Positions 22,051 to 56,985 of a stretch of 64,000 nt of DNA are shown piece by piece (positions within the stretch are counted from its first letter, which is position 1; the number at the start of each line of letters is the position of its first letter). The stretch is taken from positions 64,001 through 128,000 of IMG/VR virus record IMGVR_UViG_3300042402_001861; one strand, given 5' to 3'. The notes under the pieces were generated by a model. That model saw nothing but the letters and a program-made list of their open reading frames with translations. It was not told the DNA's origin and made no database searches. The position numbers and the translations under genes are program-made. Source of the DNA: a virus.

Positions 22051-23112
22051 TTACTCCTTCGGTGCGGCCTGAATGCCGTACTTGCTACGAGCAGTATCGC
22101 CTTCGTGATCGTTGTAGATTTTCTCAAAGTCACGCACAACAGAACTTGGTGGGACATTCTGTGCGATCAACTTTTGAATCGAATCGATGTCGCTTCCAAG
22201 GTAATGTGCCAACGACTTCCGTAGGCTGTCATCGGAAACCGGGGAGGACACACCGGCATTCTTGATCTTGAGTCCTACGAAACTCTTGATGACTCGCTGA
22301 GGAATCGTTGGACGAGGGATGTTCTTTCCCTTGGCATCCTTGACATCGATGCCAATCATGCTCGTAACAAGTGTCTTGCCGTCAAGAGGCTTGCCGTTCT
22401 TGTCGGAATAGAACACTTGTCCTTGACCGCCGCCAAGCACAAGATGGACTTCACCGTTGAGATTTGGAGGATATGCACCCTTGGCGACTTCACCCATGGT
22501 CTTGCCGACACCTTCGTGTGTCAGAAGCAGAATGTGGTCTGGAACACGGCGTGGGCGGTTGTCGTTGTTGACCATTGCCACTCGCCAGTTGGTGAGAACC
22601 CAGATGATGTGCAGATTGTTCTTTTGGTAGCCTGCGGAAATTAGGGTATCGGTGAGATTCTTGATCTCTTCGACATTCTTGAGGGTACGGTCAAAGATGA
22701 TGTTTGGCAACTGACCACCGTAAGCCTTTACCCCGATCTTCTGCTTGGCGTTGGCAATGATATGCGGAAGGAGCATGGTGGCAATGTGCTTCTGCTCAAT
22801 CGGCCAGTCCTTCAAGGCAAGGTGAATCTTTGAGACATCCTCGGGATTCCTGAAGTTGATGTCCTTGAACTGCACGAACTTGCTTTCCTTACCGGCAGCA
22901 AAGTGCAACTTTCCGATCTTTACGACCGCTTCCTTGAACGCATCGGGATCAACGACCTTGTAGTCGAATCCGTTCATCAGATTGGAGATTGCGTAACCCT
23001 TGCCACTACCGGCACCGCCTGCCATGAATACCACTTGACCGCTTCTTGCCCCGTTGTTGGGCATGATCAACTTTTCCTCAAGATAGTCTTTGAGTCCTTG
23101 AAACTCTTTCAT
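22051..23112 (-). CDS. P-loop kinase, zeta-toxin/AAA_33-like
   Basis: VFMAGGAGSGKG, DPDAFK, IIFDRT; late promoter 23131-23136. Confidence 0.8.
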   Translation of the reverse strand: MKEFQGLKDYLEEKLIMPNNGARSGQVVFMAGGAGSGKGYAISNLMNGFDYKVVDPDAFKEAVVKIGKLHFAAGKESKFVQFKDINFRNPEDVSKIHLALKDWPIEQKHIATMLLPHIIANAKQKIGVKAYGGQLPNIIFDRTLKNVEEIKNLTDTLISAGYQKNNLHIIWVLTNWRVAMVNNDNRPRRVPDHILLLTHEGVGKTMGEVAKGAYPPNLNGEVHLVLGGGQGQVFYSDKNGKPLDGKTLVTSMIGIDVKDAKGKNIPRPTIPQRVIKSFVGLKIKNAGVSSPVSDDSLRKSLAHYLGSDIDSIQKLIAQNVPPSSVVRDFEKIYNDHEGDTARSKYGIQAAPKE

Positions 23113-23145
23113 GGCATCTCCTTGTTGGGGTATTTATTCCAATAG

Positions 23146-23172
23146 AAAACCCCCGAGTCGCATATCGGGGGT
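23146..23172 (-). terminator. Intrinsic terminator
   Basis: acccccga / tcgggggt stem with T run on minus strand, after ORF ending 23219. Confidence 0.65.
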
Positions 23173-23218
23173 GTCGCACCGAGGAAACGGTTGGAGGGAG
23201 AGGGGTGCTTCGACCGCC

Positions 23219-23629
23219 TCAAGCCTCCGTATTATCTATTGATTTTGAAGATTCGGCGGTTTCGATGTCCTTGGCGTACTTCTCAAACGCTTCCTCGCAT
23301 TGTTCGCGAGTGAGGAAAGGCCCGAAGAAATCCGTTGAGGCTTCGTTCCAGAAAATCCACCCCATGTGAACGGGGGAATAATCAACCGGATCGTTCTTAC
23401 GCAACTTGATCACGCTTGCCTTGGGGTTGTTGTAACGCTCGTTGGCAACCTTCTGATAGGTGCTGATCCACTCGCAAACCTCAAAGTCTGCGGGGAAGTG
23501 CTTGAGCAGATTCCGTGCCCGTTGCCGAATTGGCTTTGGAACCTTCGGAGACTTCTCGGGGTCCATCAAGTCCTTCAGGAAATTGCGAGTGTTCATGAGC
23601 GAAATGTAGTTTTCGTAAGGCAGCGTCAT
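23219..23629 (-). CDS. Hypothetical protein
   Basis: PKVPKPIRQRARNLLKHFP pattern seen in phage proteins. Confidence 0.7.
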   Translation of the reverse strand: MTLPYENYISLMNTRNFLKDLMDPEKSPKVPKPIRQRARNLLKHFPADFEVCEWISTYQKVANERYNNPKASVIKLRKNDPVDYSPVHMGWIFWNEASTDFFGPFLTREQCEEAFEKYAKDIETAESSKSIDNTEA

Positions 23630-23630
23630 G

Positions 23631-23909
23631 TCAACCTCCGTATTGGTCAGGAATCATTTCATCTGCAAGCAAGGCAACCGACAATTCTCTAATCACCTTG
23701 TATGCCCAAGTTCGCCGTTCTTCCTTCATGGAATCGGGCAACCTTTCATACGGCACGAAATTCTTTTTCATTTCCTGTGCCTCGTCTTGGTTGATCTTGC
23801 CCGAATCGATGAGATTGGAGACTATCGACAGCCAATGGGCGTGTTCGATTTCCGCCATCCGTTCGATGAACTTCGGATCATTGATCGTCTGTATTGGGCT
23901 TTGCTTCAT
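23631..23909 (-). CDS. RyR-domain-like protein
   Basis: EHAHW...FVPYERLPDSMKE matches the RyR repeat pattern. Confidence 0.6.
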   Translation of the reverse strand: MKQSPIQTINDPKFIERMAEIEHAHWLSIVSNLIDSGKINQDEAQEMKKNFVPYERLPDSMKEERRTWAYKVIRELSVALLADEMIPDQYGG

Positions 23910-24168
23910 TTGGCTTTTCCTTCGCCACGCTCACAGCGAGGACTTGTTGCAGTTTGCTGAGAGTGTTCTTGAGAAAGTCCCGACTTGGAATCACGCCGGG
24001 GCGAGGATACACGGCAGAATCAAGAACCATCTTGAGTCGATTGAGCAATGCTTCCTTGCTTTGAAGCCTTTCCTCAAGTTCGCGATAGCGAATGCGATCA
24101 GCCTCGGTTGGCTTTCCTTGCCATCCGAGCATCATGTCCCCAATTCGATTTCTGATCGTTCTCTTCAT
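23878..24168 (-). CDS. Hypothetical protein
   Basis: ORF in leftward operon. Confidence 0.55.
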   Translation of the reverse strand: MKRTIRNRIGDMMLGWQGKPTEADRIRYRELEERLQSKEALLNRLKMVLDSAVYPRPGVIPSRDFLKNTLSKLQQVLAVSVAKEKPNEAKPNTDDQ

Positions 24169-24202
24169 GGCGAATCCCCATCCTACACATTATGTAGGTT
24201 GT

Positions 24203-24655
24203 CTAACGGGAATGCCTCTTCCGTGCTGCAAAGAATACTGCAATGCCAAGGACAGCAAGGGCACCCGGCGCAGGAACATCAGGCGGTTCACAATCTGCGC
24301 CATTGGCTAGCGTCGAAGCAGCCATGCAGACGCTTTCGACCCGATCATGGATAACAGGAATGAACATCTCCTGATCCACTCCCTGAACGGTCATCACAAG
24401 CCGTCCTTCATTGTAGATTTTGTGAATCCAGAATCCTTGGAAAGATCCCATGAAGTGCTTGTTTGGCACGACAGGATAGTTTGCCACCGTGTTGCCGTAA
24501 ATCGACGGTGCGATGGGTTCTGTGATCGTGAACTGCGTGTCAAACACCAATCGGTCGGTGAAGGTGACTTCTTGGTAGATTGCGCCTTGATACTCAGACC
24601 GCGAGAAGGTCTGGCCGTTTGTCATGTACAGGGTTGATGTATTGCTGATAGCCAT
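24203..24655 (-). CDS. Protein with PEP-CTERM-type (VPAPG) C-terminal anchor
   Basis: Ends VPAPGALAVLGIAVFFAARKRHSR; TTGACC-17-TATACT promoter 7 nt before ATG. Confidence 0.75.
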   Translation of the reverse strand: MAISNTSTLYMTNGQTFSRSEYQGAIYQEVTFTDRLVFDTQFTITEPIAPSIYGNTVANYPVVPNKHFMGSFQGFWIHKIYNEGRLVMTVQGVDQEMFIPVIHDRVESVCMAASTLANGADCEPPDVPAPGALAVLGIAVFFAARKRHSR

Positions 24656-24687
24656 TTGGATCAGTATAGGCACGAACGCAATTCAGG

Positions 24688-25068
24688 TCAAGTGTTTGCT
24701 TGCGTGAATTTGGCGATTCCGCTGCCCGTGGTGTAGTAGATGTTGTCAAACACTTCCATGCACCAAGGCAGACACTTGGGACATGGGCGACTCAGCCTTT
24801 CATTGCCGAACCGATTGAACCTGAAATTCCAAAGTTCAATGCCTTCCCTGTCTTCGCACTTTCTAAATGCATCAAGTTCAGAGTGCAGTTCATCGAAAAG
24901 GTAGCCGTACTTCTTTGCCATTGGATGGGTCTTCATCAGGTTTGTCCCAACGGAGATCACCCGTCCTCTCTTGAGGATGATGCTGCAATGGCGCTTCGGC
25001 CTGTCAATGTGCAGGCAGAGTTCCTTTGCAAGGCTGTAGATGTTGCACGGACAGTCGATGTTCTTCAT
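24688..25068 (-). CDS. Cytidine/dCMP deaminase-like protein
   Basis: LHSE and SRPCPKC zinc-binding motifs. Confidence 0.8.
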   Translation of the reverse strand: MKNIDCPCNIYSLAKELCLHIDRPKRHCSIILKRGRVISVGTNLMKTHPMAKKYGYLFDELHSELDAFRKCEDREGIELWNFRFNRFGNERLSRPCPKCLPWCMEVFDNIYYTTGSGIAKFTQANT

Positions 25069-25475
25069 GCCGTCAGGGCATACGAAGTGCTGTAATTATT
25101 TTCGAGATTTCCGTTGGTCAACGACAAATCCGACTGCTGCTTCTTGATCAAGACTTTCCCGTCTTCATCAAGAACGGGAACAAGCCCATCCTTGATGTAT
25201 TCGTCCCACAATCGCCTCGCTTCTTCCCGAGTCACGGTGAGCATGGTTGTCTTTCCAATCATGCTTGTGCCGTCAGGAAGTCTCCGAATGAACACAGTCA
25301 TGTGATCGGTGGATTCCGGCTTCTTGAGCGAAACGCCATCACGGAACACTTCTGCAAAAGCAAACTCAACGGTGTGTGGCAGGCTTGCGGTGTCGAAGCC
25401 AACCGGTGCCGTCAGCGTGTAGTAGAAAGTGATGACACAGAAACCGTTTGCGGGTTGGTTGTTGAATTCGCCCAT
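25065..25475 (-). CDS. Hypothetical protein
   Basis: ORF with ATGA coupling to the deaminase. Confidence 0.55.
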   Translation of the reverse strand: MGEFNNQPANGFCVITFYYTLTAPVGFDTASLPHTVEFAFAEVFRDGVSLKKPESTDHMTVFIRRLPDGTSMIGKTTMLTVTREEARRLWDEYIKDGLVPVLDEDGKVLIKKQQSDLSLTNGNLENNYSTSYALTA

Positions 25476-25693
25476 TCCCGCATCTTATCAGATGTCTTCT
25501 TGTGTGTCAAGCGAGAATTTTCACGCTGCTTGGCTTTGTAAAGACCTTCTGTCATGCCACAATGCTTTCCGATCCCATAACCTCGCTTATACCCGAAACT
25601 GTAAAGCCAGATTTGCGATGCGGTCAGTAGGGTTGCGAGGGAGATTCCAAAAAAGACTGTTTCGATTACTTCCAATGCTTTGATGTTTACCAT
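25412..25693 (-). CDS. Hypothetical membrane protein
   Basis: N-terminal hydrophobic segment; overlaps next ORF, start uncertain. Confidence 0.45.
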   Translation of the reverse strand: MVNIKALEVIETVFFGISLATLLTASQIWLYSFGYKRGYGIGKHCGMTEGLYKAKQRENSRLTHKKTSDKMREWANSTTNPQTVSVSSLSTTR

Positions 25694-25758
25694 AGGACAG
25701 TATGTTGCCCTTCGCAACTTTTGAACCAAACCTGAATGTTTGAAATCAGGATCGGCGC

Positions 25759-26045
25759 TTGACCGTCTTCTTGGCGATCTTCTTCGTCTTGGTCTTCAAC
25801 TGTGTGATGACCTCGGCTTCCTTCCGTGCCTTTCGCTTGTTGATGTACTCAATGATGATGGACGGCTCAAGCAGGCCAAAGAGGGTAAAGAATGCCCCAA
25901 ACAGCATATATTCCTTGCCGTGGTTGCTGCCGAGCGAGAACCAACACATTGCCATCAGTCCGCAACCAAACCCAAACCAACGGGTAAAGATCATGTCACC
26001 GATGTTATACGAATTGTCGCCAATCTTTTCCTTGATGAGTCTCAT
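25759..26045 (-). CDS. Small membrane protein
   Basis: Two hydrophobic segments, basic tail; ATGA coupling. Confidence 0.6.
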
Positions 26046-26344
26046 TGTGAAGCCTCCATTGCTTCTTCTAGGGTGCATCGAACCATGAAGCCGGGTGTGC
26101 CTTCGCCCATCCATGCTCCAACTACATTGTGTTCCATCCATTCGATGGCTTCTTCCTCTGTGGGAATGCCTTGAGCCAAGAGTATACCAACACACTTCTG
26201 ATAGTCATAGACAAATATCGCCGGTTTTCCGACTCTTCGAATGACTCCGATGAATGCCTTCTCAAAGCCATCGGCCTTGAGTGTTTCATTCAGGTTGGGC
26301 TTGACTTCATCCCAAGTCTTCTTGGGCTTCGCTGTCTCGCTCAT
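26042..26344 (-). CDS. Conserved phage hypothetical protein
   Basis: ADGFEKAFIG, YNVVGAW-like pattern (HNVVGAWMGEGTP). Confidence 0.7.
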   Translation of the reverse strand: MSETAKPKKTWDEVKPNLNETLKADGFEKAFIGVIRRVGKPAIFVYDYQKCVGILLAQGIPTEEEAIEWMEHNVVGAWMGEGTPGFMVRCTLEEAMEASQ

Positions 26345-26972
26345 AGTCGCTTTCCTTCAACTTTCTCTGGATCTTCTTGGCCCAGATTTCCATGATTGAC
26401 AAAGGATACTCAATCGACTCAAACTTGAAGCCTCGGGCGGTGGGAGAATTGCGTCCCTTGACCAACTGCGTGTAGATGCCGTCCAACTTCATCGGGCTGA
26501 ATTCACCGATTGGTGCAACGACATTCATACCTGGCCATGCATCTGCCCGTGTGCCGATTAGGACTGCATCCTTGCGATTGGGATCCTTGAATAGGACGCA
26601 ATCCTGCCCAAACTTCTGTCCCATGCGCTTGGCGAATCCCTTCACGGCTCCTACCTGTGCAGGGCTGTTGTCCCTGCCGATGACCATGAAGGATTCCTCG
26701 GTGACCTTTACCTTCTTGTCGCCGTAATCTTCCTCGTATCGTCCGAGCATCTTGACGAACCCGAACCCCGCAGAGCGAATGTCATTTTCCAACTTTGCAT
26801 TGTTGGAACGATTGGTCTGCAAGGAGATAAGTTCTCCTGTCTGCTTGTCCTTGAATCGGAACGCAGTAAGCAGGGCAAACGGGCGATCCTTGATATGCGA
26901 AGCAACTCGCGAAAGCGAGATTTCGTTGAGTGGCTGACGGTCGAATCTGTCGTTTGTATCGTCATCATGCAT
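26307..26972 (-). CDS. Conserved T4-like phage protein, DUF3293-like
   Basis: LNEISLSRV, LLTAFR, NNAKLENDI, EESFMV, FGQDCVLF. Confidence 0.65.
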   Translation of the reverse strand: MHDDDTNDRFDRQPLNEISLSRVASHIKDRPFALLTAFRFKDKQTGELISLQTNRSNNAKLENDIRSAGFGFVKMLGRYEEDYGDKKVKVTEESFMVIGRDNSPAQVGAVKGFAKRMGQKFGQDCVLFKDPNRKDAVLIGTRADAWPGMNVVAPIGEFSPMKLDGIYTQLVKGRNSPTARGFKFESIEYPLSIMEIWAKKIQRKLKESDYERDSEAQEDLG

Positions 26973-27153: not shown

Positions 27154-27181
27154 GAAAGTCCTTTCTTTGGTGACTAGTGAG

Positions 27182-30978: not shown

Positions 30979-31047
30979 GCATTTATGCTGCCCTGCGTTG
31001 GTGATGGTTGTTCATGTGACTCATTGCGACTCAAGAATATTTAGGAA

Positions 31048-32019: not shown

Positions 32020-32069
32020 TGACGAAAGTATAGGTGACGCTTGATTACCTGTCAAGGATAAATACGGGC

Positions 32070-32768
32070 ATGAAGAGCCTGTTGGAACATCTTTTGCAGG
32101 AGGATGACTGCGCCAAGATTTTTGGAAATGTGCTTTTTGGAAATCCTCCCGGCGAAGAGCGAGACAGCACCAAGGAAAGAGACATTAGAAAGGCAGTCAT
32201 GTCCTTCTTCGGTGATAACTTGACCTACAAGCAGAAGCCCGAAACGGTGGTCAGAGCATTCCGTGAATTATTGAAATGCAAGGGCAAGTTCCCCGACGAA
32301 CTTCAACCCAATGTCAGCCTGCTGTATCGGGGCATCCGCCTGAAAGAAAGTGAAATTGTGAAAATCAAGGATTGGAAGTTTGCCGACGATACAAAGCAGG
32401 AATTGGTCGGCACCGGGACATACAAGTCCAAGTATCCGATTCAGTCATGGTCGGCAAGCAAGATCCGTGCAGAGTTCTTCTCAATCGACTTCCCCGAATG
32501 GCGAAGACAGAAGATGCTGCCTGCAATCGTCATGGCGGTTCCTGACAAGTCCGAAATGCTCTTCAACACCAAGTTCGTCATGGAACTGAAGAAGAGCGCA
32601 AGAGGAACGCAGAAGTACTACATGGAGCAGGAGATCGTCCGTGTCAGCGAGAAGAAGATCAACTGCAAGTTCTTCCTACCCACCCAATATGTCAGGATGG
32701 TCGATGGCCTGTCACGAAAGACAATCGATCACCTCGTCAGCACGGCAGGTTTCCGCCCGACAGCCTAA
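32070..32768 (+). CDS. ADP-ribosyltransferase-like protein
   Basis: LYRG, QSWS, EQE in R-S-E order; TAAATA 32059-32064. Confidence 0.65.
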   Translation: MKSLLEHLLQEDDCAKIFGNVLFGNPPGEERDSTKERDIRKAVMSFFGDNLTYKQKPETVVRAFRELLKCKGKFPDELQPNVSLLYRGIRLKESEIVKIKDWKFADDTKQELVGTGTYKSKYPIQSWSASKIRAEFFSIDFPEWRRQKMLPAIVMAVPDKSEMLFNTKFVMELKKSARGTQKYYMEQEIVRVSEKKINCKFFLPTQYVRMVDGLSRKTIDHLVSTAGFRPTA

Positions 32769-36829: not shown

Positions 36830-38215
36830 TCATTCCTCGTTGACGGGCTTTCGCGGATCAAATGGCTTCTTGCCCATCATCAGGCCGCTGTATATGTTGT
36901 TGTAGACATTCTGCATCTTGGTGCCATCGGTTCGCTTCATGTTGGCGATTGCCTTGTTGAATTCCTGAACGGTAGGAACCTTGCCCTGCGCCATTCGGGA
37001 ATTGTACTCGCTGATGATGTTTCTGACATCCTGCAAGAGCGAAACGGTTCGCGACAGGAACTTCTCCCTGCGCTTGGGTTCCTCAAGGAAGAACTTTGCC
37101 GTGCTGTATGCCTGCCACGAAACGAATATGAGGCAGAAGTTGCCCACCGCACCCATGTTGTACTTGTCGAGCCCGAACTTGGTCGCATGTTCCCTTGCCC
37201 AAGGCTCCGCGATTGCATCGGACATCTTCCGATACAGTTCCGCGACCACCACCTCGGCAACCTCCTTGCACCTTGCGGTGGGAGTCATGGTGTTGAAGTT
37301 TGAATTTGCGGCCAATGCCTTTGCGGCAGAGCGTTCATTGGTGGCAGCGATCAGGAACGACTGCACGGCATTCTCAACGATCTCAGCCGCACTCTGAAAG
37401 TATGCATTCCACTCCGCATCGCTTGTGTAGTAGTCCTTCTTGAAGACATCCTTGCTGTCATATGACGCATCGATTCCACGCTTGATGTTGCCGGGATGGC
37501 TTGACTTGGACTTGTACCGAAAGTCATCGAACAGGTGGATGAATTCGTGGATGTAGATGTCAGCCGTGTTGGACAATTCGGCCTCGAATTGGTCAAGCCA
37601 CTTGTTCAGGGGCCGTGCAAGTGCCTGAGCCGACTTTCCCTCAATCTTGCCACGAAGAGTCTGTATGATGGCATGGTGGAAGGGCTTGTCGGGCTTGAAC
37701 TGCAATGTCTCCATGTGGTGAATCTGAACCTCGGGATTGTTTCGTCCCATCTTTCCCGAATGGTAGGTTCCCTTGGCATTGCCGCTGCTGAACATGGACC
37801 GACCCGTGGTGCTTCGAAGCGTTGTCTGCAACAGGACGATGTTTCCCTTGTCAACCAACTGACGATACTGCTTCATCGTGATGTAGGAAGGCAGCACCAT
37901 CTGCGACTCGTCCCTGATGCACATGGCGATCACCACATCCCATCCGTTCTTTGTGGCAAGGACAAAGTGCGAGGAAGGCTGGTTCAGCGTGAAGGCATGG
38001 ATCAGGTTGTTGGCAATGGTATGGTCGCTGTCCATGGTGTAGTGGAAGACTCTGTTCTCTGCCATGTCCTTGACGAAGGCGGCGACCTGCCTGCGGAGTA
38101 TGACCATCAGGTTCTTCTTGAATCTTTCAAATGACTTCCTTGCCGCATCCCGTGTCGGGCGGTCAAGTTCACGCTCAAGCAGCAGGGCTTCCATCATCTC
38201 TTCGAAAGTCTTCAT
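36830..38215 (-). CDS. HEXXH zinc-peptidase-like protein with internal-protein-type leader
   Basis: YIHEFIHLFD, downstream EWNAYF; N-term MKTFEEMMEALLLE; ATGA coupling. Confidence 0.7.
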   Translation of the reverse strand: MKTFEEMMEALLLERELDRPTRDAARKSFERFKKNLMVILRRQVAAFVKDMAENRVFHYTMDSDHTIANNLIHAFTLNQPSSHFVLATKNGWDVVIAMCIRDESQMVLPSYITMKQYRQLVDKGNIVLLQTTLRSTTGRSMFSSGNAKGTYHSGKMGRNNPEVQIHHMETLQFKPDKPFHHAIIQTLRGKIEGKSAQALARPLNKWLDQFEAELSNTADIYIHEFIHLFDDFRYKSKSSHPGNIKRGIDASYDSKDVFKKDYYTSDAEWNAYFQSAAEIVENAVQSFLIAATNERSAAKALAANSNFNTMTPTARCKEVAEVVVAELYRKMSDAIAEPWAREHATKFGLDKYNMGAVGNFCLIFVSWQAYSTAKFFLEEPKRREKFLSRTVSLLQDVRNIISEYNSRMAQGKVPTVQEFNKAIANMKRTDGTKMQNVYNNIYSGLMMGKKPFDPRKPVNEE

Positions 38216-38454
38216 CGCTTGCCCTTTTGCCCTATTCCGTACTTTCTGAAAATCTCGTCCCGCTTGGCCTGAAGTTCTCTCTGCCGTGGAGAACCCGCCA
38301 TGGCACGAAAGATCAACTTGGTCAGTCGATTGGCTTCCCGACGATCCTCGGGGGACATGACAGCCCAAGGATCCTTGAAACCCTTGAATGAATGGGAAGA
38401 GGAAGCCGACGAAGCCGACGAAGCCTCAAGGATGTGCTGCCGAAAACTCTGCAT
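38212..38454 (-). CDS. Small basic protein with internal-protein-type leader
   Basis: MQSFRQHILE-A; TAAATA 38463-38468. Confidence 0.7.
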   Translation of the reverse strand: MQSFRQHILEASSASSASSSHSFKGFKDPWAVMSPEDRREANRLTKLIFRAMAGSPRQRELQAKRDEIFRKYGIGQKGKR

Positions 38455-47460: not shown

Positions 47461-47655
47461 CTTCTCAGACGGCCACTTTTGAAACCTTCGTGAAATCAAA
47501 TTCCCAAAATTTGCAAAAATCCCTTGGTACATTTTTGGCCAAAACAGGTCGCACTCCCCTCACCACATATCCCTCTCTCCTTCACCCCTTTCCTAAATAT
47601 CCCTTGTCATGTTGCGTCTGCATTCTCTGCATCCCCATCTTCCCTGCACAGCCCC

Positions 47656-48618
47656 ATGAGAAGTTTCTACGATTTCTCAAAGTCTGTCCCTGTCACTCCT
47701 GTCACTCCTGTCAATTTGAAACTTGACGAGGCGAGCAGGGTGAAGTCTTCAGAGGACTTGCAGAAATTGGCAAAGAAGATTCGTCCCATCACCGTATGCG
47801 ACATCTTCTCTGATTCCACTCCCAAGCGTCTGTATGAATTGATGGACGAGAATCTTTGGCATCAGACACTTGTTTCAAATGGCATCATCTCAAGCAGGGG
47901 GTATTCCTACGATTATGATGCTCCTGCATGGATGGAAAGGCTCAAGCGTGACATCTGGTCACCCTTTGTTGAATGGTTCGAAGCCGAGGGTGGTTCCAAG
48001 CAGGGGATGATTCCCAAGATCGCGGCGATGGCCTCATGCAGGAAGAGGGCAGCATGGGCGAACTGGTCGGGAACCGCCTATCGCGGACTCAGCCGAAGCC
48101 TTGCACGGATCGCCAAGTACGAGTACACCAGCAAGACCGAGGCTGTCGGTGGCAGGACATGGCTTGTGGCAAGTGTCTCCTATCAGAGCAAGTATGCCAT
48201 TCAGTCATGGACGAGTGAACCTAAGGTTGCCAAGAACTTTGCCGATGGCGGCATGGATGTTGCCGTGATGTTGCAGATGGACATAAAAAAAGGCGAGGGG
48301 TTCCTGTCGCCCGAGGTGAGCAACAGATTGGGCAAGCACTACAAGGAGAGCGAGGTGCTGCGAATCGGCAACGCCAAGACGAGGGTGAAGGCTCTGGTTG
48401 ACATGAGAGACTTGCTGAACGAACTTGACGAGATCCTTGGTGTCATGCGTCTTCCCGCATCATGGGATACGATGCCCACGAAGATGCGTAAGCAGGCATG
48501 GCCCGAGGCCGTGGCGGCGAAGATGATTCGACTTGGATTCTCAAAGTCCTCTGTCGCAAGCCTCATGTCTTCGGGGCATCCATTTTACGCATCGGTGATG
48601 AAGAGGGTGCCATGGTAA
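47656..48618 (+). CDS. ADP-ribosyltransferase-like protein with IPI-like leader
   Basis: AYRG, QSWTS, ESE in R-S-E order; TAAATA 47594-47599. Confidence 0.65.
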   Translation: MRSFYDFSKSVPVTPVTPVNLKLDEASRVKSSEDLQKLAKKIRPITVCDIFSDSTPKRLYELMDENLWHQTLVSNGIISSRGYSYDYDAPAWMERLKRDIWSPFVEWFEAEGGSKQGMIPKIAAMASCRKRAAWANWSGTAYRGLSRSLARIAKYEYTSKTEAVGGRTWLVASVSYQSKYAIQSWTSEPKVAKNFADGGMDVAVMLQMDIKKGEGFLSPEVSNRLGKHYKESEVLRIGNAKTRVKALVDMRDLLNELDEILGVMRLPASWDTMPTKMRKQAWPEAVAAKMIRLGFSKSSVASLMSSGHPFYASVMKRVPW

Positions 48619-48917
48619 ACTTCAAGTCATACATCAGCGAGGCAAAGGTCAGGATGTCGTGGAAGCGATATGTCATGAAGACTGTTGATGGAAAGATTGC
48701 AGATTGGATAGAGGCTGCTTACGAAAGCAGCAACAAACGATTTGTCATCAAGAAGCACAGACGAAGTTCGACATATGAACTGTTTGACAGACGGCATCCG
48801 AGGACATCTTTTGGATCATATGAAACCCTTGATGCGGCAAAGGAGAGTGCAGAGTGGGCATTGCTGAACGATCCACGGACAGAGTGGCATCCTTCTCTGC
48901 GTGAGGGCACGGCATGA
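48612..48917 (+). CDS. Small basic protein with internal-protein-type leader
   Basis: MVNFKSYISE-A; coupled. Confidence 0.7.
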   Translation: MVNFKSYISEAKVRMSWKRYVMKTVDGKIADWIEAAYESSNKRFVIKKHRRSSTYELFDRRHPRTSFGSYETLDAAKESAEWALLNDPRTEWHPSLREGTA

Positions 48918-49654
48918 AGTCTTTCCGTGGCCACATCACCGAGGTGTTCGACACGACACACTCATGGGAGCCTGTGTCCACGGGAGGCAACCATTGGGTC
49001 TATCGCTTTGCCTTGGCAAAGGTTCGCCGTGGTTTGTTCCTTCCTGCTCCCCTGCGTGGCGAGGAGATCGTCAAGTTCTACGAAAAGCAGGGAATGAGAA
49101 TCACGGGCAAGGATGGGCAGAACCGTCCCTTGGTAAACGGCAAGGACATTGCAAGCACTCCTCTTGCGGGTGCGATGTACGAGGTTGGCTTTCGTTCATT
49201 GGGACACAACATGGAGAAGTATTCCGAGTTGTTCAAGCGTTCCAACCTTGGCGGCAACGACAAGTATCTCCTGTGGGAAATAGACTTTGCACGAAACGAT
49301 TCGATGCTCAAGTGGTCAAACGGAAACTGGCAATGGGACTATGAATCGAATTCAGGGGGTTCTGACGAGGATCTTGGAATCATGGGAGGCGGCGATGCTG
49401 CTGCCATACTGTCCACGGTGGTCGCCATCGCCAAGGAATTCGTCGCCAAGGTCAAGCCCATGGGAATTCTCCTTGGCACGAAGATGGACGCAAAGGGAGC
49501 AAGGAGCCGAATCTATGCTGGCCTTGCAAGCAGAAACAATGCACGGATGATTCCCATTCCCTACTCGCCAAGGTCAGGCATGGGCAATGCGAACATGCTG
49601 TGGTTTGGCAAGGACAAGGACTTCCAGCCCGTCAGCAAGGAAGGCAAGCCATGA
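48914..49654 (+). CDS. Hypothetical protein with internal-protein-type leader, possible Alt-N-like domain
   Basis: MKSFRGHITE-VFD; GDAAAILSTVVAIAKEF...SRIY; ATGA coupling. Confidence 0.65.
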   Translation: MKSFRGHITEVFDTTHSWEPVSTGGNHWVYRFALAKVRRGLFLPAPLRGEEIVKFYEKQGMRITGKDGQNRPLVNGKDIASTPLAGAMYEVGFRSLGHNMEKYSELFKRSNLGGNDKYLLWEIDFARNDSMLKWSNGNWQWDYESNSGGSDEDLGIMGGGDAAAILSTVVAIAKEFVAKVKPMGILLGTKMDAKGARSRIYAGLASRNNARMIPIPYSPRSGMGNANMLWFGKDKDFQPVSKEGKP

Positions 49655-50298
49655 AGTCATTCATCGCATTCATCAGCGAGGCACAGTCCTTCGCACAATG
49701 GGTTGCACGGAATGCCGAGAAGCGCAAGGCACCCGCATCGGGTTCTCCCCGCAGTTCCTTCCCGTGGATGCAGAATGCCAACATGGTTCCCGGTTGGTGG
49801 CATCCGACCAAGCAATGGTTCACTTTCGCCCACGGCAAGCAGGGCTACCATGTCACGCATCTTGTGAACAACCTCTCAAAGTTCGGCATTTCCGAAAAGG
49901 AGTTGATGGCTGCTGCGGCGAAGGAAGCGCAGAGGCCATATTGGGACAACGAATTGAGAAAGCAACGGGGACACAATCTTGTCGATGCCGAGCGGGTGAT
50001 CCACATGATCAAGAACGAGAACATCGACAACTCCTATCCGATCATGGCACTAGCCTACAAGCGTGGATGGCTCAAGGCATACGGCGGGAAGTTCCACACC
50101 GGCGACCGTGGCGGCGCAATCGAAGGTTCCGACAAGAAGAGCATCAAGGCCGCGATCCGCGAGATAGAGCAGGCGGCATCCATGGCAGGAATCGATGACA
50201 TCCGTATCGATGCAACGGAGCGGTCAAACACCACATACGAGCCAAAGTTCTTCGTTCTGGATTCAAAGTTCAAGCGTGATGGATACATGAGGCAATGA
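49651..50298 (+). CDS. Hypothetical protein with internal-protein-type leader
   Basis: MKSFIAFISE-A; ATGA coupling. Confidence 0.7.
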   Translation: MKSFIAFISEAQSFAQWVARNAEKRKAPASGSPRSSFPWMQNANMVPGWWHPTKQWFTFAHGKQGYHVTHLVNNLSKFGISEKELMAAAAKEAQRPYWDNELRKQRGHNLVDAERVIHMIKNENIDNSYPIMALAYKRGWLKAYGGKFHTGDRGGAIEGSDKKSIKAAIREIEQAASMAGIDDIRIDATERSNTTYEPKFFVLDSKFKRDGYMRQ

Positions 50299-50299
50299 C

Positions 50300-50773: not shown

Positions 50774-50794
50774 ATACAAAAACAGGAGAACGCC

Positions 50795-52004: not shown

Positions 52005-53282
52005 TTACTTGACGCAGCCCCAGAAAAGGTCTGCGCCAGCCTTGCTTGTTATGTCTATGCCCTTTTTGGCGGTAGTCTTTGACTTCGAACCCTCAACACG
52101 GGGAGCGATGGCAAAGGTCACTCTTGCCTTCTTGCTCTCTATTGTGCAAGACACATCAAATACGGACATTGATCTAGCCTGACGGTTTATGTCGGTTGCC
52201 TTTGTCGGAGTTGAGTGTACTTGTGTTATCTTTCCGATTTCTAGGTTTCCTGATGTTGCAGGGAACGGTTTCATGCTATAGATGTACTGTTGACCGTTCA
52301 CCTTGATCGTCTTGCTTGATGTGTTGAAGTCCACGGCTCCTGTCTTGGCAAGATTCGACAGGACTTTCTCTTCCATGTAGACGGGCTTCCCTACCTTTAT
52401 ATCGTTTATGGATGCCGCTTGGATTCTTATCCTTCTTTTCAGGGCAACCGTGGTTTCGCTCAATGATCCTCGCTTGAGGCGAACCTCCATCTCTCTCGCA
52501 GAATCATCCATCTTGTCAAGTGAGGAAATCGATGGGACTGTTCCGCCAACAAACCACGAAGGAAGTTTGGCACCAGAGTAAAGAAGCCCGATGTTTTCAA
52601 TATAGACAAAGTGGTCACCGCCATTCTTTGCAAGACCTTGCAAAGTTGCCCAGTAACTGTCTAGGGTGATTCTCCACTTTTCGCCGCTTTCCTGTGTCGT
52701 GTACTTCTTCAGTATTGGATTCCATATTTCCTTTGTGACCCAGAAGTGTATGTTTCCCGAGATAGTGGATTGATCGTTCATCCACTTTCCGATAGTCGGC
52801 AACATGACATCAAGTCTGGCTTCCACGGTTGTCAACTTCTTGAGTACCGACTTTCGGTTTATCTCACTCATGGAGTTCCACTTGCCAAGGGACACCTCTG
52901 TGGGGCTCCACTTCTTGTTGTTTCGATTGAGAGTGATGCTGACTCCCTGTGCTTCTTCTTTCTTCACTTCGATCACGATAGGATCGCTGAGTCTCTTTCC
53001 GTTCTTGTCTAGTTTGTAGATTGTAATGTCAGGCTGTACAGAACCAATTCCCTTGTCTCCTCCACCTTGAGAGAAATTGCTTACGACCTCTATCTTTCCC
53101 TGAAGATGCGAAGGCATTTCCTTGAGAAGTGCCTTGGCTATTTTGTTCTGCAACACACCGCCAGCCTGCCCACGAATCGACTTCTGCGGAGCCTTGGCTT
53201 CGAGGAACATACGGGCAGCAGGGGACAGCAGAGGAGAACTCTCGTCCAGATGGATGAACTGTTTTAGGGTTAGTGGCTTCAT
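52005..53282 (-). CDS. PD-(D/E)xK nuclease-like protein with internal-protein-type leader
   Basis: QPDITIY...IVIEVKK; MKPLTLKQFIHLDE; TAAATA 53289-53294. Confidence 0.65.
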   Translation of the reverse strand: MKPLTLKQFIHLDESSPLLSPAARMFLEAKAPQKSIRGQAGGVLQNKIAKALLKEMPSHLQGKIEVVSNFSQGGGDKGIGSVQPDITIYKLDKNGKRLSDPIVIEVKKEEAQGVSITLNRNNKKWSPTEVSLGKWNSMSEINRKSVLKKLTTVEARLDVMLPTIGKWMNDQSTISGNIHFWVTKEIWNPILKKYTTQESGEKWRITLDSYWATLQGLAKNGGDHFVYIENIGLLYSGAKLPSWFVGGTVPSISSLDKMDDSAREMEVRLKRGSLSETTVALKRRIRIQAASINDIKVGKPVYMEEKVLSNLAKTGAVDFNTSSKTIKVNGQQYIYSMKPFPATSGNLEIGKITQVHSTPTKATDINRQARSMSVFDVSCTIESKKARVTFAIAPRVEGSKSKTTAKKGIDITSKAGADLFWGCVK

Positions 53283-53320
53283 GCTCGGTATTTATCTAAA
53301 TAAAAACCGAGGATACCCCC

Positions 53321-53578
53321 ATGAAGAGTTTCAAGAAACTTAAGGAAGAGTTGGCAGGCCGTGTTCAGGTTCACTACGGATCGAAGGACGGCTTTGGTAA
53401 GGATGTCAAGATCATCGCCACGGTTCCCCCGATGACTGAACCTGCCATCGAAAACAAGTACGACCTCATGCGAAAAATTGAAAAGTACATCAAAGACATG
53501 AAGACAAAGGGGTTGATCAAGGGGAATGGCTACAAAATCGTATACCCACATGACCCACAATGGCGTGGGAGTAAGTGA
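53321..53578 (+). CDS. Small basic protein with internal-protein-type leader
   Basis: MKSFKKLKEE; TAAATA 53297-53302; SD gagga. Confidence 0.7.
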   Translation: MKSFKKLKEELAGRVQVHYGSKDGFGKDVKIIATVPPMTEPAIENKYDLMRKIEKYIKDMKTKGLIKGNGYKIVYPHDPQWRGSK

Positions 53579-53584
53579 GCAAAC

Positions 53585-53752
53585 ATGGGAAGAGAGCGTA
53601 AGGGAAAGATGGACAAGGGGGGCAAGAAGCCCGGACTTTCGTTGCAGGGACTGCCGAAGATTTATCCACCCAATGGTCAACCCATAAGCAAGGAACTTCG
53701 TGCTTGGGCAGAGCGGAAGATTGCCGCCAACAAGGCAGCAGGCAAGCGTTAA
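53585..53752 (+). CDS. 55-aa basic protein (not in ORF track)
   Basis: MGRERKGKMDKGGKKPGLSLQGLPKIYPPNGQPISKELRAWAERKIAANKAAGKR. Confidence 0.55.
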   Translation: MGRERKGKMDKGGKKPGLSLQGLPKIYPPNGQPISKELRAWAERKIAANKAAGKR

Positions 53753-54078
53753 CGGTAGCGGACGATCAGGGTCTTCTGCCAGATCGACCAAGTGACCTTC
53801 TCGTCATCGCCAACGATGTCCGAGAGAAGTTGCTCCACTTTTTGCCGAGCAGACTTGCGTAGTTCTGAATCGTCCTGCCGTTGCGAGTCACCAATTGGAA
53901 TCTGTCCGTTGAGTCCCTGTATCAGGTTGAAGTCGGGTGCATTCCTGAATTCAGGTATCTCCATCATTAGCCAACTAATGTCATAGGTCTTGATGACATC
54001 GGGACACATGAGCATCAGGCTCGTAAGCAGGACGGGAAGAATCTGCATCAGTATTGCTCCGAATAGGGCTTGGCCCAT
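53749..54078 (-). CDS. Hypothetical protein, possible signal peptide
   Basis: Hydrophobic N-terminus. Confidence 0.55.
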   Translation of the reverse strand: MGQALFGAILMQILPVLLTSLMLMCPDVIKTYDISWLMMEIPEFRNAPDFNLIQGLNGQIPIGDSQRQDDSELRKSARQKVEQLLSDIVGDDEKVTWSIWQKTLIVRYR

Positions 54079-54323
54079 GACAGGGCGATGATGTCCTCTA
54101 TGCCTAGAGGATTTGCGATCCTACGCAGCACACCCTTTTCCGTGGATGTTGGCTCTCCCGGCGTACCATTACGCATGGCACGGACGCACTTTTCAAGTGT
54201 TGCCTCGTCCAAGGATTTCAAAATTTCAAGGTATTCCTCGGGAATCGAAGCGGATTCGGGGACAGCCTCGTAGGCAATTTCAATCGGAGGCATTGAGATG
54301 TTTCCGTATCGGAATCTTGGCAT
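54048..54323 (-). CDS. Hypothetical protein
   Basis: SD gaggag; TAGATA 54338-54343. Confidence 0.6.
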   Translation of the reverse strand: MPRFRYGNISMPPIEIAYEAVPESASIPEEYLEILKSLDEATLEKCVRAMRNGTPGEPTSTEKGVLRRIANPLGIEDIIALSWAKPYSEQY

Positions 54324-54389
54324 GGAAGTCTCCTCTGTATCTATGGGGGCAGGCGAATTTGAGGAATAGATACAGTAGAGGAATTCCCC

Positions 54390-54860
54390 ATGGCATATGC
54401 ACACAAGTTGGCAGAACTAGCCAACCAAATCACTAATCTCACCGAGGCTCCGATGCTTGCTCCAAGCACGGACACCGGCATGTTCGGCTACAGCAAGTCG
54501 CAGTTTGAGATGAAGATTCGCCAACTGCTTCAGAGAATGGGATTTGAGAAGGGCATCAACAAGATGGAGATCGGCTCCAACGGTAAGATGATGCTCCACT
54601 TCGCCAATGCAGCGAAGGCACGGGACTTCATGATCACATTCAACGGCATGGTTCGTCGCATGGCCAAGGGCGGTGCCACGGCTGCACAGATGGTGACTTC
54701 CTTCGACAAGAACAAGTCTCCCGGCACGGCTGCCGTTGTATCCGTTGACTTCTCCGTGATGATGAAGAAGGAAGGTGTCGAGGTCACCGAGGACATCTTC
54801 GTGATGCTCGAAAGCCTGCACGATTCGTTCATCAAGGAACAAACTTCTACGGAAGAATAA
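54390..54860 (+). CDS. Hypothetical late protein
   Basis: SD gagga; TAGATA 54367-54372; NLTE-A putative gp21 site. Confidence 0.7.
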   Translation: MAYAHKLAELANQITNLTEAPMLAPSTDTGMFGYSKSQFEMKIRQLLQRMGFEKGINKMEIGSNGKMMLHFANAAKARDFMITFNGMVRRMAKGGATAAQMVTSFDKNKSPGTAAVVSVDFSVMMKKEGVEVTEDIFVMLESLHDSFIKEQTSTEE

Positions 54861-55174
54861 TGCACTATCGTGACTTGAAGAAAAAGTTGGAAGAGGAGAT
54901 TGCCAACACCACGGCGATCATCAATTATCCCGCAGGGTTCCAAGTAGACACGGTTCCATCTGACTTCGATGTCGAAGACTTTCCCGAGGATGATGAGTGG
55001 AGCAGAGACAGAAAAGACCTTGGCGACAAGTGGGAAGTTGCAAATGCAGCGGCAGCACGGGAACGCCGTGAGACTGTACTTCGCTGGCTTAAAGCCGCCT
55101 CTGGCAATCAGTTAAATGCGGTTGACAACAAGAGCCTCCCCAAGGTTCCCGGTTGGCAATCCGAGAAGTATTAA
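54860..55174 (+). CDS. Hypothetical protein
   Basis: TAATG coupling; MHYRDLKKKLEEE. Confidence 0.65.
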   Translation: MHYRDLKKKLEEEIANTTAIINYPAGFQVDTVPSDFDVEDFPEDDEWSRDRKDLGDKWEVANAAAARERRETVLRWLKAASGNQLNAVDNKSLPKVPGWQSEKY

Positions 55175-55262
55175 ACTTGACACGAATTGTGGGGTGAATG
55201 TAGACTCCCTCCCTATACATACCTATCCCTATCCATTGTGGGTCGGGAGTTACAAAGGAGAA

Positions 55263-56033
55263 ATGATGAAGAAAGTAATTACCTACGCTGCGGCTATGGT
55301 TGCCGCTCTTTCCTTCGGCCACATGGCTGCTGCTCAGGAGGCTGCTGCTCCTGCCGCTGCTCCGGTGTTCGAAGTCAAGAATTGGTACTTCCGCGAGAGC
55401 ATCGATGTGAATGCCCTCAAGGATAACGGCGGCACCTTCGTTGGACTGAACCAGACCCTAGGATTCGACATCATGAAGGATGTGACTGTCGATTTCAATG
55501 TTCCCGTGTATGCACAGAATGGCTACACCTCGGTGGCCAACCTCATGCTCGGTGCAAATTGGGCTGCGTTCAAGGGCAACAACAGCGTCCTTGGTGACTG
55601 GATGCTGAACTTCGGTGGCGGTTTCTACATTCCCGTTGGTACGGAATACTTCCGCAATGCGAATGTGAACCCGTTCGTGAACACCAAGTTCGGCTTCGAT
55701 CTGTGGAAGTTCGACTTCGCACAGACCGTTGACTACCGCTTCAACGGTGGAGAGTCCTACATCACTTGGCTCGGAGCCAAGACCGATTCGGATGTCCTCA
55801 CCCTTGTGTCGGATCTGTCCTATGCTTGGAACGCTTGGAACTTCGGCCTACAGTTTGACCAGTTGTACTATGTCAACAGCGGCGAGTACCAGTTGTTCCT
55901 TGGTCCGGTTGCTTCGTGGGAGGTTGCTTCGAATGTTTCGTTCGACGCTGCCATCCTCATCCCTGTTGCACAACAGGTCACTAGCGCCGAGTCCAATGCC
56001 TTCGTGAAGGCTGGCATCGAAGTCAAGTTCTGA
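55263..56033 (+). CDS. Outer-membrane beta-barrel-like protein with signal peptide
   Basis: MKKVITYAAAMVAALSFGHMAAA signal, amphipathic aromatic strands, terminal GIEVKF. Confidence 0.75.
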   Translation: MMKKVITYAAAMVAALSFGHMAAAQEAAAPAAAPVFEVKNWYFRESIDVNALKDNGGTFVGLNQTLGFDIMKDVTVDFNVPVYAQNGYTSVANLMLGANWAAFKGNNSVLGDWMLNFGGGFYIPVGTEYFRNANVNPFVNTKFGFDLWKFDFAQTVDYRFNGGESYITWLGAKTDSDVLTLVSDLSYAWNAWNFGLQFDQLYYVNSGEYQLFLGPVASWEVASNVSFDAAILIPVAQQVTSAESNAFVKAGIEVKF

Positions 56034-56057
56034 TTTCAAATTTCTGCTACTTCAACG

Positions 56058-56087
56058 GCAGGGAGTCGAAAGACTCCCTGCTGTTTT
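56058..56087 (+). terminator. Intrinsic terminator
   Basis: gcagggagtc-gaaa-gactccctgc-tgtttt. Confidence 0.85.
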
Positions 56088-56100
56088 CCTAAATATCCAT

Positions 56101-56985
56101 ATGCGTAGATTCCGAAGTTTCGTTTCCGAAGGTTACAACGGCGATGGCGATTGCATGGAAGCCGCCGCCAACCTAATGATGCGTTTTCACACTCCTTTCT
56201 TCGGAAAGCAGTTGCAGTCCAAGTCGGGAAATCCCATTCTCGTCCATGCCCTCGTCTACGGACAGGGGCCGGTGAAGAATCTTCGGTTCCCCCATGCATG
56301 GGTTGAGGATGGAGATACCGTCATCGACCAATCCAACGGTCGCGATATCCAAATGGACAAGCGAGTTTACTACGCAGTAGGCAAGATTGATCCCAAGCAG
56401 AAGGGTGCCTACAAGACATATACCTTCAAGGAAATGAAGAAGAAGTTGACATCTACAGGTCACTACGGACATTGGGACTTGGATGAGAAACTTGAGGAAG
56501 TCACTTCGCGAATTGGCAAGATGCGAAAGCCGGTTGGACGCAAGGTGATGGACATCCTGAAGGAAGCAATCGTCAGCGGAGTGGGCGGTGGCGTAAGAAA
56601 GCCGATGCCCCCTTCATCCCCCGTCAAGAAGATTGAGTGGAACGAGTTGAAGCGGCTTGAGTCGATGCTTGACAATCTGTTCGCCGCTGCAAAGTTGGAC
56701 ATCAAGTTCACCAAGCACTTCCTTGAGAGAGTCAACGGTTCCCGTGGGTACGGCGGCACCGTGACGATGGGTGAGATTCAGGATGCCTTCAACAAGACAT
56801 TCAAGAAGTATGCAAGCGTCATTCAGAACAAGCCCGTCGATTGGAAGGCAGTCATCAACGATGTCTCCAAGAATCTCAACATGCCGTTTGCGTTGGATTG
56901 GGACGCAAGCAAGAAAAGCATGGTGATCCTGACGGCGATGAAGAAACCCAACTTTGCCTCGCCCGACCCAAAGTTGAAGGTCTGA
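56101..56985 (+). CDS. Two-domain protein: transglutaminase-like C/H/D domain plus possible RNase-like domain, internal-protein-type leader
   Basis: MRRFRSFVSE-G; CMEAA, HAWVE, VID; FTKHFLERVN; TAAATA 56090-56095. Confidence 0.6.
   Translation: MRRFRSFVSEGYNGDGDCMEAAANLMMRFHTPFFGKQLQSKSGNPILVHALVYGQGPVKNLRFPHAWVEDGDTVIDQSNGRDIQMDKRVYYAVGKIDPKQKGAYKTYTFKEMKKKLTSTGHYGHWDLDEKLEEVTSRIGKMRKPVGRKVMDILKEAIVSGVGGGVRKPMPPSSPVKKIEWNELKRLESMLDNLFAAAKLDIKFTKHFLERVNGSRGYGGTVTMGEIQDAFNKTFKKYASVIQNKPVDWKAVINDVSKNLNMPFALDWDASKKSMVILTAMKKPNFASPDPKLKV

Follow-up and report, generated by a model that had tools for sequence, protein, structure and literature searches.

Capsid-targeting-type leaders on late genes of a Kyanoviridae-like phage: candidate packaged cargo

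Background

We investigated a stretch of 64,000 nucleotides (the window), bases 64001-128000 of one 177,364-bp viral contig (IMG/VR record IMGVR_UViG_3300042402_001861, estimated completeness 98%), in which a dispersed set of late genes encodes otherwise unrelated proteins that share a short N-terminal leader resembling the capsid targeting sequence of phage T4. The T4 sequence, M-K-T-Y-Q-E-F-I-A-E, was assigned to the internal proteins IPI, IPII and IPIII by Mullaney and Black in 1996 (as reviewed in PMC9026906), and amber-suppressor mutagenesis has attributed targeting to residues 4 and 7 and processing to residues 8 and 10 (PMC9026906). An Asp at leader position 10 still permits targeting in T4, without cleavage (PMC9026906). 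Genes are named here by the first base of their start codon and their strand, and positions past the end of the window are given as window equivalents. An earlier note, made from the sequence alone, had proposed that about 15 such genes encode an enzymatically diverse cargo that is packaged in the head and acts at injection; every open reading frame (ORF) start that it listed was present at the coordinates it gave.

By its sequence the phage is a member of the T4 superfamily from a Kyanoviridae-like lineage. Its major capsid protein, gp23, is 57–63% identical to those of pelagiphage Mosig, the Methylophilales phage Melnitz and T4-like cyanophages (Kyanoviridae), and 43–47% identical to T4 gp23; a megablast search with 20 kb against phage records returned no match. 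The window holds both head and late-transcription genes, namely those for the portal, an S77 prohead protease, a T4_CASP scaffold, gp23 and a gp55-like late sigma factor. These genes are listed in Table 1 together with the leader-bearing genes of the window and a three-gene late operon beyond it.

Results

The strict leader is a ten-residue N-terminus of the form M-x-x-F-x-x-[H/Y/F]-[I/V]-x-E, which a regular-expression search over every ATG of the six frames located at exactly seven ORF starts, on ORFs of 80–294 residues. Six of these genes lie in the window (30596-, 38454-, 48612+, 48914+, 49651+ and 56101+) and the seventh 26 kb past its end (window-equivalent 89924+). The motif occurs at 7 of 205 gene N-termini versus 4 of 52,754 internal positions, where 0.016 N-terminal occurrences would be expected (Poisson P about 4e-17), and the leader ending in hydrophobic-x-E that the earlier note had described on unrelated ORFs is therefore real. 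As a guard against circularity, a position matrix was made that contains foreign leaders only, namely those of T4 IPII/IPIII and gp61.1, of Melnitz, of S-SRM01 and of one IMG/VR contig. When it was applied to the 2,232 ATGs followed by at least 50 open codons, the seven strict genes ranked at the top with 17.6–25.1 bits and the next candidate reached 11.9, so that a profile scan of the kind the earlier note had suggested cleanly separates the strict set. A broader start, M-[K/R/Q]-x-[F/Y], is found in 14 of the 205 genes versus 1.2% of internal Met positions; 13 of these 14 genes are late, the protease gene among them, the exception being the DNA polymerase gene.

F4, H/Y/F7, I/V8 and E10 are present in all seven strict leaders, and the four positions fixed here (4, 7, 8 and 10) are the determinants that were defined experimentally in T4. 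A single DNA pattern recovers T4 ipII, ipIII and gene 61.1 along with the seven genes of this phage. The leader codons vary at synonymous sites and the DNA upstream of the leader genes is unrelated, which argues for selection on the peptide instead of on a DNA cassette and rules out a shared nucleotide cassette of promoter plus first codons. Paralogy of the mature proteins was rejected as well, since in an all-against-all blastp comparison the leaders alone were held in common, apart from the weak pair 32070+/47656+. With leaders of just ten residues, chance or a recent duplication of a single gene's 5' end might be considered, but this explanation is refuted by the P value given above, by the lack of nucleotide-level identity in leader codons or upstream DNA, and by a pattern held over 50 diverged homologue clusters; we regard its probability as negligible. 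One T4 gene recovered by the pattern, 61.1, is not among the internal proteins in the T4 literature consulted; its product (NC_000866, 18966-19130), a hypothetical protein of 54 residues, starts M-K-T-F-K-E-F-I-K-E, a canonical capsid-targeting-type leader.

Leader genes lie in late transcription units. Upstream of genes, no hexamer is as enriched as TAAATA (31 genes, with 1.5 expected), which also stands before the genes for sheath, tube, scaffold and capsid. According to a simple operon walk, TAAATA-headed units hold 108 of the 205 genes and include all seven strict-leader genes (P 0.010), all nine strict and near cases together (P 0.003) and, with the loose cases, 15 of 15, the last figure being inflated by the fact that loose cases had been picked partly by promoter. 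Eighteen genes directly follow TTGACN-N16-18-TAnnnT promoters, and not one of them carries a leader. On this division into late and early, which is a promoter prediction for the leader genes, the leader is confined to late units. Both halves of the promoter claim in the earlier note (leaders behind TAAATA or on genes coupled to it, and none behind TTGACN) are borne out, and a profile matching early and late genes equally, which the same note had named as contrary evidence, was not seen. The isoelectric point (pI) is 9.2–10.9 in all 14 cargo proteins, seven strict and seven variant, and exceeds 9 in 17% of the other genes (Fisher 2e-10 for the 14 proteins, 9e-6 for the strict set alone); this basic charge is not imposed by the motif and matches the basic, DNA-associated internal proteins of T4.

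The shared N-terminus could in principle reflect a translation-initiation constraint of late, often leaderless mRNAs, that is, favoured first codons and not a protein signal. TAAATA does stand 5–8 nt before the ATG in four of the seven canonical-type leader genes with their own box (two strict genes, the DUF6267 gene and four variants). However, conservation reaches residues 7, 8 and 10 amid synonymous codon variation, strict leaders are also found on operon-internal genes without a separate promoter, the motif is missing from leaderless late genes, for example uvsW, and it accompanies virion presence in cyanophage S-CREM2, all of which makes a translational origin very unlikely.

The close spacing of promoters and start codons is itself widespread. 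Promoters lie very near the ATG at 11613-11626, 32059-32072, 39814-39807 (-), 53294-53280 (-) and 56090-56103, as well as genome-wide: 10 of 46 TAAATA boxes with an ORF of at least 60 codons starting within 60 nt downstream sit 5–8 nt before the ATG (control hexamers, 2.6%), and 9 of the 18 TTGACN promoters end 5–10 nt ahead of it. At such short distances the transcripts must have little or no untranslated 5' end, and for uvsW the start 5 nt past TAAATA was confirmed by a Pfam UvsW_N match from residue 5. A public protein collection has 56101+ only from Met19 (56101-56155 +), which indicates that automatic gene callers can miss leaderless starts and cut the leader off.

The leader is conserved across protein families that have otherwise diverged. 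The 56101+ family has 62 homologue clusters, and the alignment of 50 full-length clusters contains 40 different leaders in which Met1, Phe4, Tyr/His/Phe7, Leu/Ile/Val8 and Glu10 are nearly invariant and positions 3, 5, 6 and 9 vary freely. A profile of the pair of ADP-ribosyltransferase (ART)-like proteins 32070+ and 47656+ retrieved 458 representative clusters from 1.84 billion proteins; the strict leader is present in 40 of the best 150 representatives, and many more begin with M-K-x-F/Y. For the orphan protein 48914+, three homologue clusters were found in all, with the leader kept in both sequences read (P0002 and P0003), and relatives sought in viral contigs were not found. Partial genomes of relatives carry 2–6 strict leaders per 18–53 kb, as against 0 for a reversed-pattern control. 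When whole genomes were compared with one DNA pattern, the number of strict leaders was 0 in Mosig, HTVC008M and P-SSM2, 1 in Melnitz, 2 each in S-SRM01 and S-CRM01, 3 each in S-CREM2 and T4, and 7 in this phage.

Cyanophage S-CREM2, with a genome of 174.9 kb, 47.9% G+C and a capsid protein 60% identical to that of this phage, allows the leader to be compared with virion content, as its CsCl-purified virions have been analysed by mass spectrometry (Li et al., PMC10665884). Besides several hypothetical proteins, an S-adenosylmethionine (SAM) hydrolase, a kinase and a cytidylyltransferase were detected in them; the authors remarked that enzymes of the latter two kinds are frequent in virions of cyanophages and that they could not rule out contamination (PMC10665884). 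The strict DNA pattern falls at five places in the S-CREM2 genome, three of which are gene starts (SAM hydrolase, kinase and cytidylyltransferase), and all three products are virion proteins, an outcome with a chance of about 0.013 given 52 virion proteins among 221 annotated features. Reading of the N-termini gave canonical leaders for ORF6, ORF14 and ORF154 and a leader with Leu at position 4 for ORF13, whose product is likewise in the virion proteome; neighbouring genes undetected in virions have no leader. The sequence upstream of the leader ORFs is TATAAATA at two and GATAAATA at one, ORF14 being without its own box. The 1061-residue protein encoded beyond the window in the present genome has a first module homologous to the cytidylyltransferase of S-CREM2.

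In S-CRM01, the two strict matches are an acetyltransferase gene and a Ser/Thr kinase gene, and a protein kinase, possibly the product of the latter gene, has been detected in S-CRM01 virions (PMC10665884). The S-CREM2 paper makes no mention of a targeting sequence or propeptide (PMC10665884), and in the literature searched the capsid targeting sequence was tied to cyanophages in a general review alone. A Cas9-like nuclease in S-CREM2 virions (OR473000, 7704-10313 -) has R-F-A-S-F-M-A-E↓A (the arrow marks the putative cleavage site here and below) at residues 18–25 and not at its annotated start, so that either the start was mis-called or the signal is able to work internally. A short amphipathic N-terminus could also suit systems that sort proteins elsewhere than to the capsid, such as membrane insertion, secretion or regulated degradation. 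Yet the leaders have neither a hydrophobic core nor a signal-peptidase site, they match the T4 signal at its four functional positions, and leader-bearing proteins are found in S-CREM2 virions; sorting to another destination is a very unlikely explanation.

The counterparts of the T4 processing machinery are encoded in the window (Table 1). When gp23 sequences were aligned, the propeptide site read L-K-E↓A-A here, L-S-E↓A-A in Mosig and L-T-E↓A-E in T4, the last of which we take to be the position of T4 gp23 cleavage. Because this site is conserved, the aliphatic-x-Glu specificity of the protease is predicted to be kept; the gp22-type scaffold is the presumed docking partner of the leaders. 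The protease itself has the N-terminus M-K-L-F with L-N-E at residues 7–9 (6633-6660 +), the scaffold starts with M-D-S-F (7327-7356 +), and an internal in-frame scaffold stretch, L-D-S-Y-L-S-Y-V-I-E (7879-7908 +), fits the leader pattern; the core proteins may share contact and cleavage logic with the cargo. An ORF of 372 residues (4661-5779 +), located between the portal gene and the small ORFs 5779-6225 and 6225-6611 that precede the prohead protease gene, had no Pfam or PHROG family match. T4 has the small gp67 and gp68 at the corresponding place.

Six further genes (23112-, 32070+, 38215-, 47656+, 53282- and 53321+) have variant leaders that end in L/I-x-E at positions 9–25 and score within the noise of the foreign-leader profile. 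In related IMG/VR contigs, homologues of variant-leader genes have leaders that are canonical or off at one or two positions. For instance, homologues of the kinase-like protein 23112- share a K-L-I core, which comes after a canonical ten-residue leader in contig L071 and after near-canonical leaders in L069 and in L068; in L070, the 47656+ family has a canonical leader and the 32070+ family one of the M-K-D-F type; and in the L068 homologue of 53282-, a near-canonical leader begins at the second ATG, which lies 8 nt past TAAATA. No informative relative of 38215- was found in these contigs. Strict leaders are retained too, as the HAD orthologues of 30596- keep canonical leaders in L048 and L068, and in L076 the homologue of 38454- has a canonical leader and that of 49651+ a leader near-identical to the one of T4.

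The weaker cases that the earlier note had added fared unevenly. Relatives lend some support to 54390+, 54860+ and 50795+, and the homologue of 54390+ in L068 is the first module of a polyprotein with the L-x-E↓A-P site conserved. The SAM-lyase-like gene 26972- is not supported as a leader gene, having neither an M-K-x-F start nor a late promoter. Outside the list of that note, a collagen-repeat fibre protein (G000 161505-162959, window-equivalent 97505-98959 +) starts M-A-K-F-R-D-F-I-G-K, with Lys for Glu10, 6 nt after TAAATA; as a fibre protein without Glu10 and with a profile score at noise level it was discarded as cargo, and it is probably a chance look-alike. In the present genome, 53321+, the polyprotein gene, 54860+, 56101+, 23112-, 26972-, 30596- and 53282- are scattered over both strands; in relative L068 (IMG/VR contig 3300010354_003850, 1-14700), their homologues form a cargo cluster on one strand.

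Table 1 Leader-bearing, cargo, head and late-transcription features (aa, residues)
Feature	Position	Strand	Remarks
gp21-type prohead core serine protease	6633..7280	+	Pfam Peptidase_S77 E 2.5e-36; H + GVSSRG block kept in T4 gp21 alignment
gp22-type scaffolding core protein	7327..8454	+	Pfam T4_CASP E 1.5e-74; TAAATA 32 nt upstream
gp23 major capsid protein	8540..9910	+	propeptide site conserved
gp55-like late sigma factor	13841..14416	+	50% identity to annotated Mosig late sigma factor
Late polyprotein, 824 aa	17715..20189	-	TAAATA 33 nt upstream; outside the coordinates of the earlier note
Variant 13-residue leader, P-loop (Zeta-toxin-like) kinase-like protein	22051..23112	-	terminator, TAAATA and Shine-Dalgarno upstream
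Strict leader, HAD 5'(3')-deoxyribonucleotidase-like protein, 176 aa	30066..30596	-	second gene behind TAAATA 31038-31043
Variant 11-residue leader, ADP-ribosyltransferase-like enzyme, 232 aa	32070..32768	+	TAAATA 5 nt upstream
Variant 14-residue leader, 447-aa basic protein, no known family	36830..38215	-	start overlaps 38454- stop
Strict leader, 70-aa very basic protein	38212..38454	-	pI about 11; TAAATA 8 nt upstream
TAAATA late-promoter core	47594..47599	+	heads four-gene leader operon
Variant 25-residue leader, second ART-like enzyme, 320 aa	47656..48618	+	first gene of late operon, TAAATA 47594
Strict leader, 91-aa basic protein	48612..48917	+	second gene, late operon from 47594
Strict leader, 236-aa basic orphan protein	48914..49654	+	third gene, late operon from 47594
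Strict leader, 205-aa basic protein	49651..50298	+	fourth gene, late operon from 47594
Variant 14-residue leader, 411-aa basic protein, no known family	52005..53282	-	TAAATA 6 nt upstream
Variant 9-10-residue leader, 76-aa basic protein	53321..53578	+	TAAATA 18 nt upstream; profile 11.9, edge of noise
Possible processed head protein	54390..54860	+	L-T-E↓A-P at residues 17-21
TAAATA late-promoter core	56090..56095	+	5 nt before ATG of 56101+
Strict leader, two-domain basic protein	56101..56985	+	TAAATA 5 nt upstream (leaderless mRNA)
DUF6267 protein, 11-residue leader	beyond window		first gene of three-gene late operon
1061-aa protein	beyond window		second gene of that operon; nucleotidyltransferase, RimK ATP-grasp, Zn-protease, DUF5824 and DUF3140 modules
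Strict-leader DUF5824 fragment	beyond window		third gene of that operon

Several cargo candidates have enzyme signatures. The AlphaFold model of 32070+ (pLDDT, the predicted local distance difference test, 91.7) matched an ART fold in all top 50 hits of a structure search, the best being Vis (Z 8.0, root-mean-square deviation 3.5 over 147 residues); since this Z lies at the caution threshold of the tool, the weight rests on the uniformity of the match list. R87, Q-S-W125-127 and E186-x-E188 of 32070+ are nearly invariant among 60 relatives, and an alignment of four sequences showed Y-R-G, Q-S-W-S/T and E-x-E to be conserved, the last reading E-S-E in both 32070+ and 47656+. No Pfam ART family matched 32070+, 47656+ or any of the 60 aligned relatives, and a PDB profile search was negative; as no curated ART sequence family matches, we label the pair ART-like and assign no named family. 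In 23112-, the Pfam Zeta_toxin match (E 1.7e-7, 31.3 bits) is above the cut-off and covers only the P-loop segment 26–62, and a match to phrog_5268 begins at residue 1. The 30596- protein scores 23.3 bits against Pfam NT5C, just below the cut-off of 24.8, matches phrog_2643 with E 2.3e-19 and has D-M-D-G (the D-x-D-G motif) at residues 19–22.

In the AlphaFold model of 56101+, the leader is disordered and the N-domain is well modelled. Cys18, His65 and Asp76 of this domain are invariant in the homologue alignment, and its fold matches, papain- or transglutaminase-like, are weak (3c9q Z 5.3, LapG Z 4.9, SpvD Z 4.7); Foldseek found nothing significant for the model. Sequence searches against Pfam, PADLOC and PDB gave nothing usable for 32070+, 38215-, 38454-, 47656+, 48612+, 48914+, 49651+, 53282- and 56101+, and family and structure searches found no nuclease or peptidase among the cargo. 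Of the enzyme labels in the earlier note, the two ART-like proteins are retained by fold and R-S-ExE motif, the P-loop kinase-like and HAD nucleotidase-like proteins are kept provisionally by family matches, the nuclease was not found, and the transglutaminase-like or peptidase label is reduced to the invariant Cys-His-Asp of 56101+, with no peptidase assigned.

The 824-residue polyprotein consists of Lys-rich modules of 40–100 residues joined by about eight acidic linkers that end in V/L-x-E↓A/S (type K-K-E-E-V-E-V-x-E, then A or S), and in L068 its homologue has the 54390+ module fused N-terminally. It looks like a precursor that the prohead protease would cut into small basic internal proteins.

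A packaged protein need not act in the host, and the main rival to injection gives the leader-bearing proteins a function within the capsid, as accessories of the scaffold or as basic, DNA-condensing counter-ions. All of them are strongly basic, several are small and have no enzyme motif, and the polyprotein modules are rich in Lys, as this would predict. Conversely, conserved catalytic signatures are seen in the ART-like pair (R-S-ExE), the HAD protein (D-x-D-G) and the kinase-like protein (P-loop), and the similarly designed internal proteins of T4 enter the host by injection and inhibit its nucleases (PMC12373910). A purely in-capsid role is thus unlikely in our judgement.

Discussion

We consider it likely that T4-type leaders on late genes of this phage load basic cargo proteins into the prohead by the gp22/gp21 route and that these proteins are then injected with the DNA. 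In such a scheme, the gp55-type sigma factor would transcribe the leader genes late from TAAATA promoters, and the aromatic residues 4 and 7 of each new protein would dock it on the gp22 scaffolding core during prohead assembly. The gp21-type (S77) protease would then cleave after the Glu of [I/V/L]-x-E, at position 10 of canonical leaders and at positions 9–25 of variants, and the freed basic mature protein would remain with the packaged DNA and enter the host cell alongside it. Docking, cleavage and packaging in this phage, as well as copy number, injection and host targets or roles, are what we infer by analogy with T4. The reading of the leaders as T4-type capsid targeting sequences put forward in the earlier note is supported by the fixed positions, the encoded machinery, the late units, the charge, the conservation within families and the S-CREM2 virions. 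The cargo would amount to at least seven proteins, and probably to about fifteen; judged from family matches and motifs, it would include the two ART-like proteins, the P-loop kinase-like protein, the HAD deoxyribonucleotidase-like protein, the Cys-His-Asp domain protein and the DUF6267 protein beyond the window, and the late polyprotein cut at similar sites probably belongs to it as well.

Several points weigh against this interpretation. Packaging in this phage is read from genes and not from virion proteomics or N-terminal data, and most cargo proteins are without assignable function. The cargo reaches 51 kDa, far bigger than the T4 internal proteins. The six variant leaders are not significant by profile and appear credible through relatives alone, several starts belong to leaderless mRNAs with one public gene call starting 56101+ at Met19, and look-alike N-termini occur, as on the collagen-like fibre protein 97505+ that lacks the Glu. 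Furthermore, the authors of the S-CREM2 study warn that abundant proteins may co-purify with virions (PMC10665884).

The closest known system is that of the T4 internal proteins: they too are basic in mature form, encoded by late genes and accompanied by the gp21 protease and the gp22 core, and their ten-residue leader is aromatic at positions 4 and 7 and aliphatic at position 8, with Glu at position 10. In contrast to the three leaders of T4, this phage has seven canonical and about eight variant ones, of 9–25 residues; its cargo includes enzymes and proteins of up to 51 kDa, where that of T4 consists of small nuclease inhibitors; many of the mRNAs are leaderless; and the lineage is Kyanoviridae-like. 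T4 Alt, both termini of which are propeptides (PMC9026906), is a head-borne ADP-ribosyltransferase of the R-S-ExE type that the prohead protease trims, and head carriage and trimming are predicted for the ART-like pair by analogy. The two proteins of this pair are much smaller than Alt (232 and 320 residues), have leaders of the internal-protein type and match no Pfam ART family.

In S-CREM2, the kinase, cytidylyltransferase and SAM hydrolase detected in virions begin with the same leader, but S-CREM2 and S-CRM01 have two to four such genes each and the contaminant question was left open by the authors (PMC10665884). The giant phages phiKZ and SPN3US also have many head-internal proteins that are cut after Glu by a related T4-like protease and delivered to the host (PMC5694885, PMC7411985); these phages are not reported to use a ten-residue T4-type leader, and they have an inner body or bolus and genomes of more than 200 kb. 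The signal and the way it works were described in 1996, and polymorphic leader-bearing genes are known in T-even phages (PMC9026906, PMC12373910). What is new is the scale, in that a cleavable polyprotein accompanies seven canonical and about eight variant leaders; the size of the cargo proteins and their enzymatic character; the presence of leaders in a Kyanoviridae-like lineage and of hundreds of leader-tagged families in metagenomes; and the link to unexplained virion-associated enzymes in cyanophage proteomes.

Conclusions

To our knowledge, only a handful of injected proteins, mostly small T4 internal proteins, have been characterised. Injected proteins act before phage gene expression and are therefore a first line against host defences. 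On balance, we lean towards the broader proposition that Kyanoviridae-like T4 phages use the targeting sequence and prohead protease as a general delivery platform, with at least 15 enzymes plus cleavable polyprotein arrays per head, that the leader allows injected effectors of thousands of uncultured phages to be predicted from sequence alone, and that it explains the 'non-structural' enzymes of cyanophage virions. Such a platform would carry ADP-ribosyltransferases and kinase-like proteins as well as nucleotidases and nucleotidyltransferase/ATP-grasp modules. It would moreover account mechanistically for the recurrent kinases, cytidylyltransferases and SAM hydrolases of cyanophage virion proteomes, which the authors of those studies left open. 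Gene callers that trim leaderless starts would hide leader signals in databases, and the near-leaderless mRNAs may bear on translation in the host. Provided that the leader is a cargo mark here as in T4, the present genome and its relatives would constitute a catalogue of candidate injected enzymes, and the leader may serve as a portable packaging tag outside the T-even phages.

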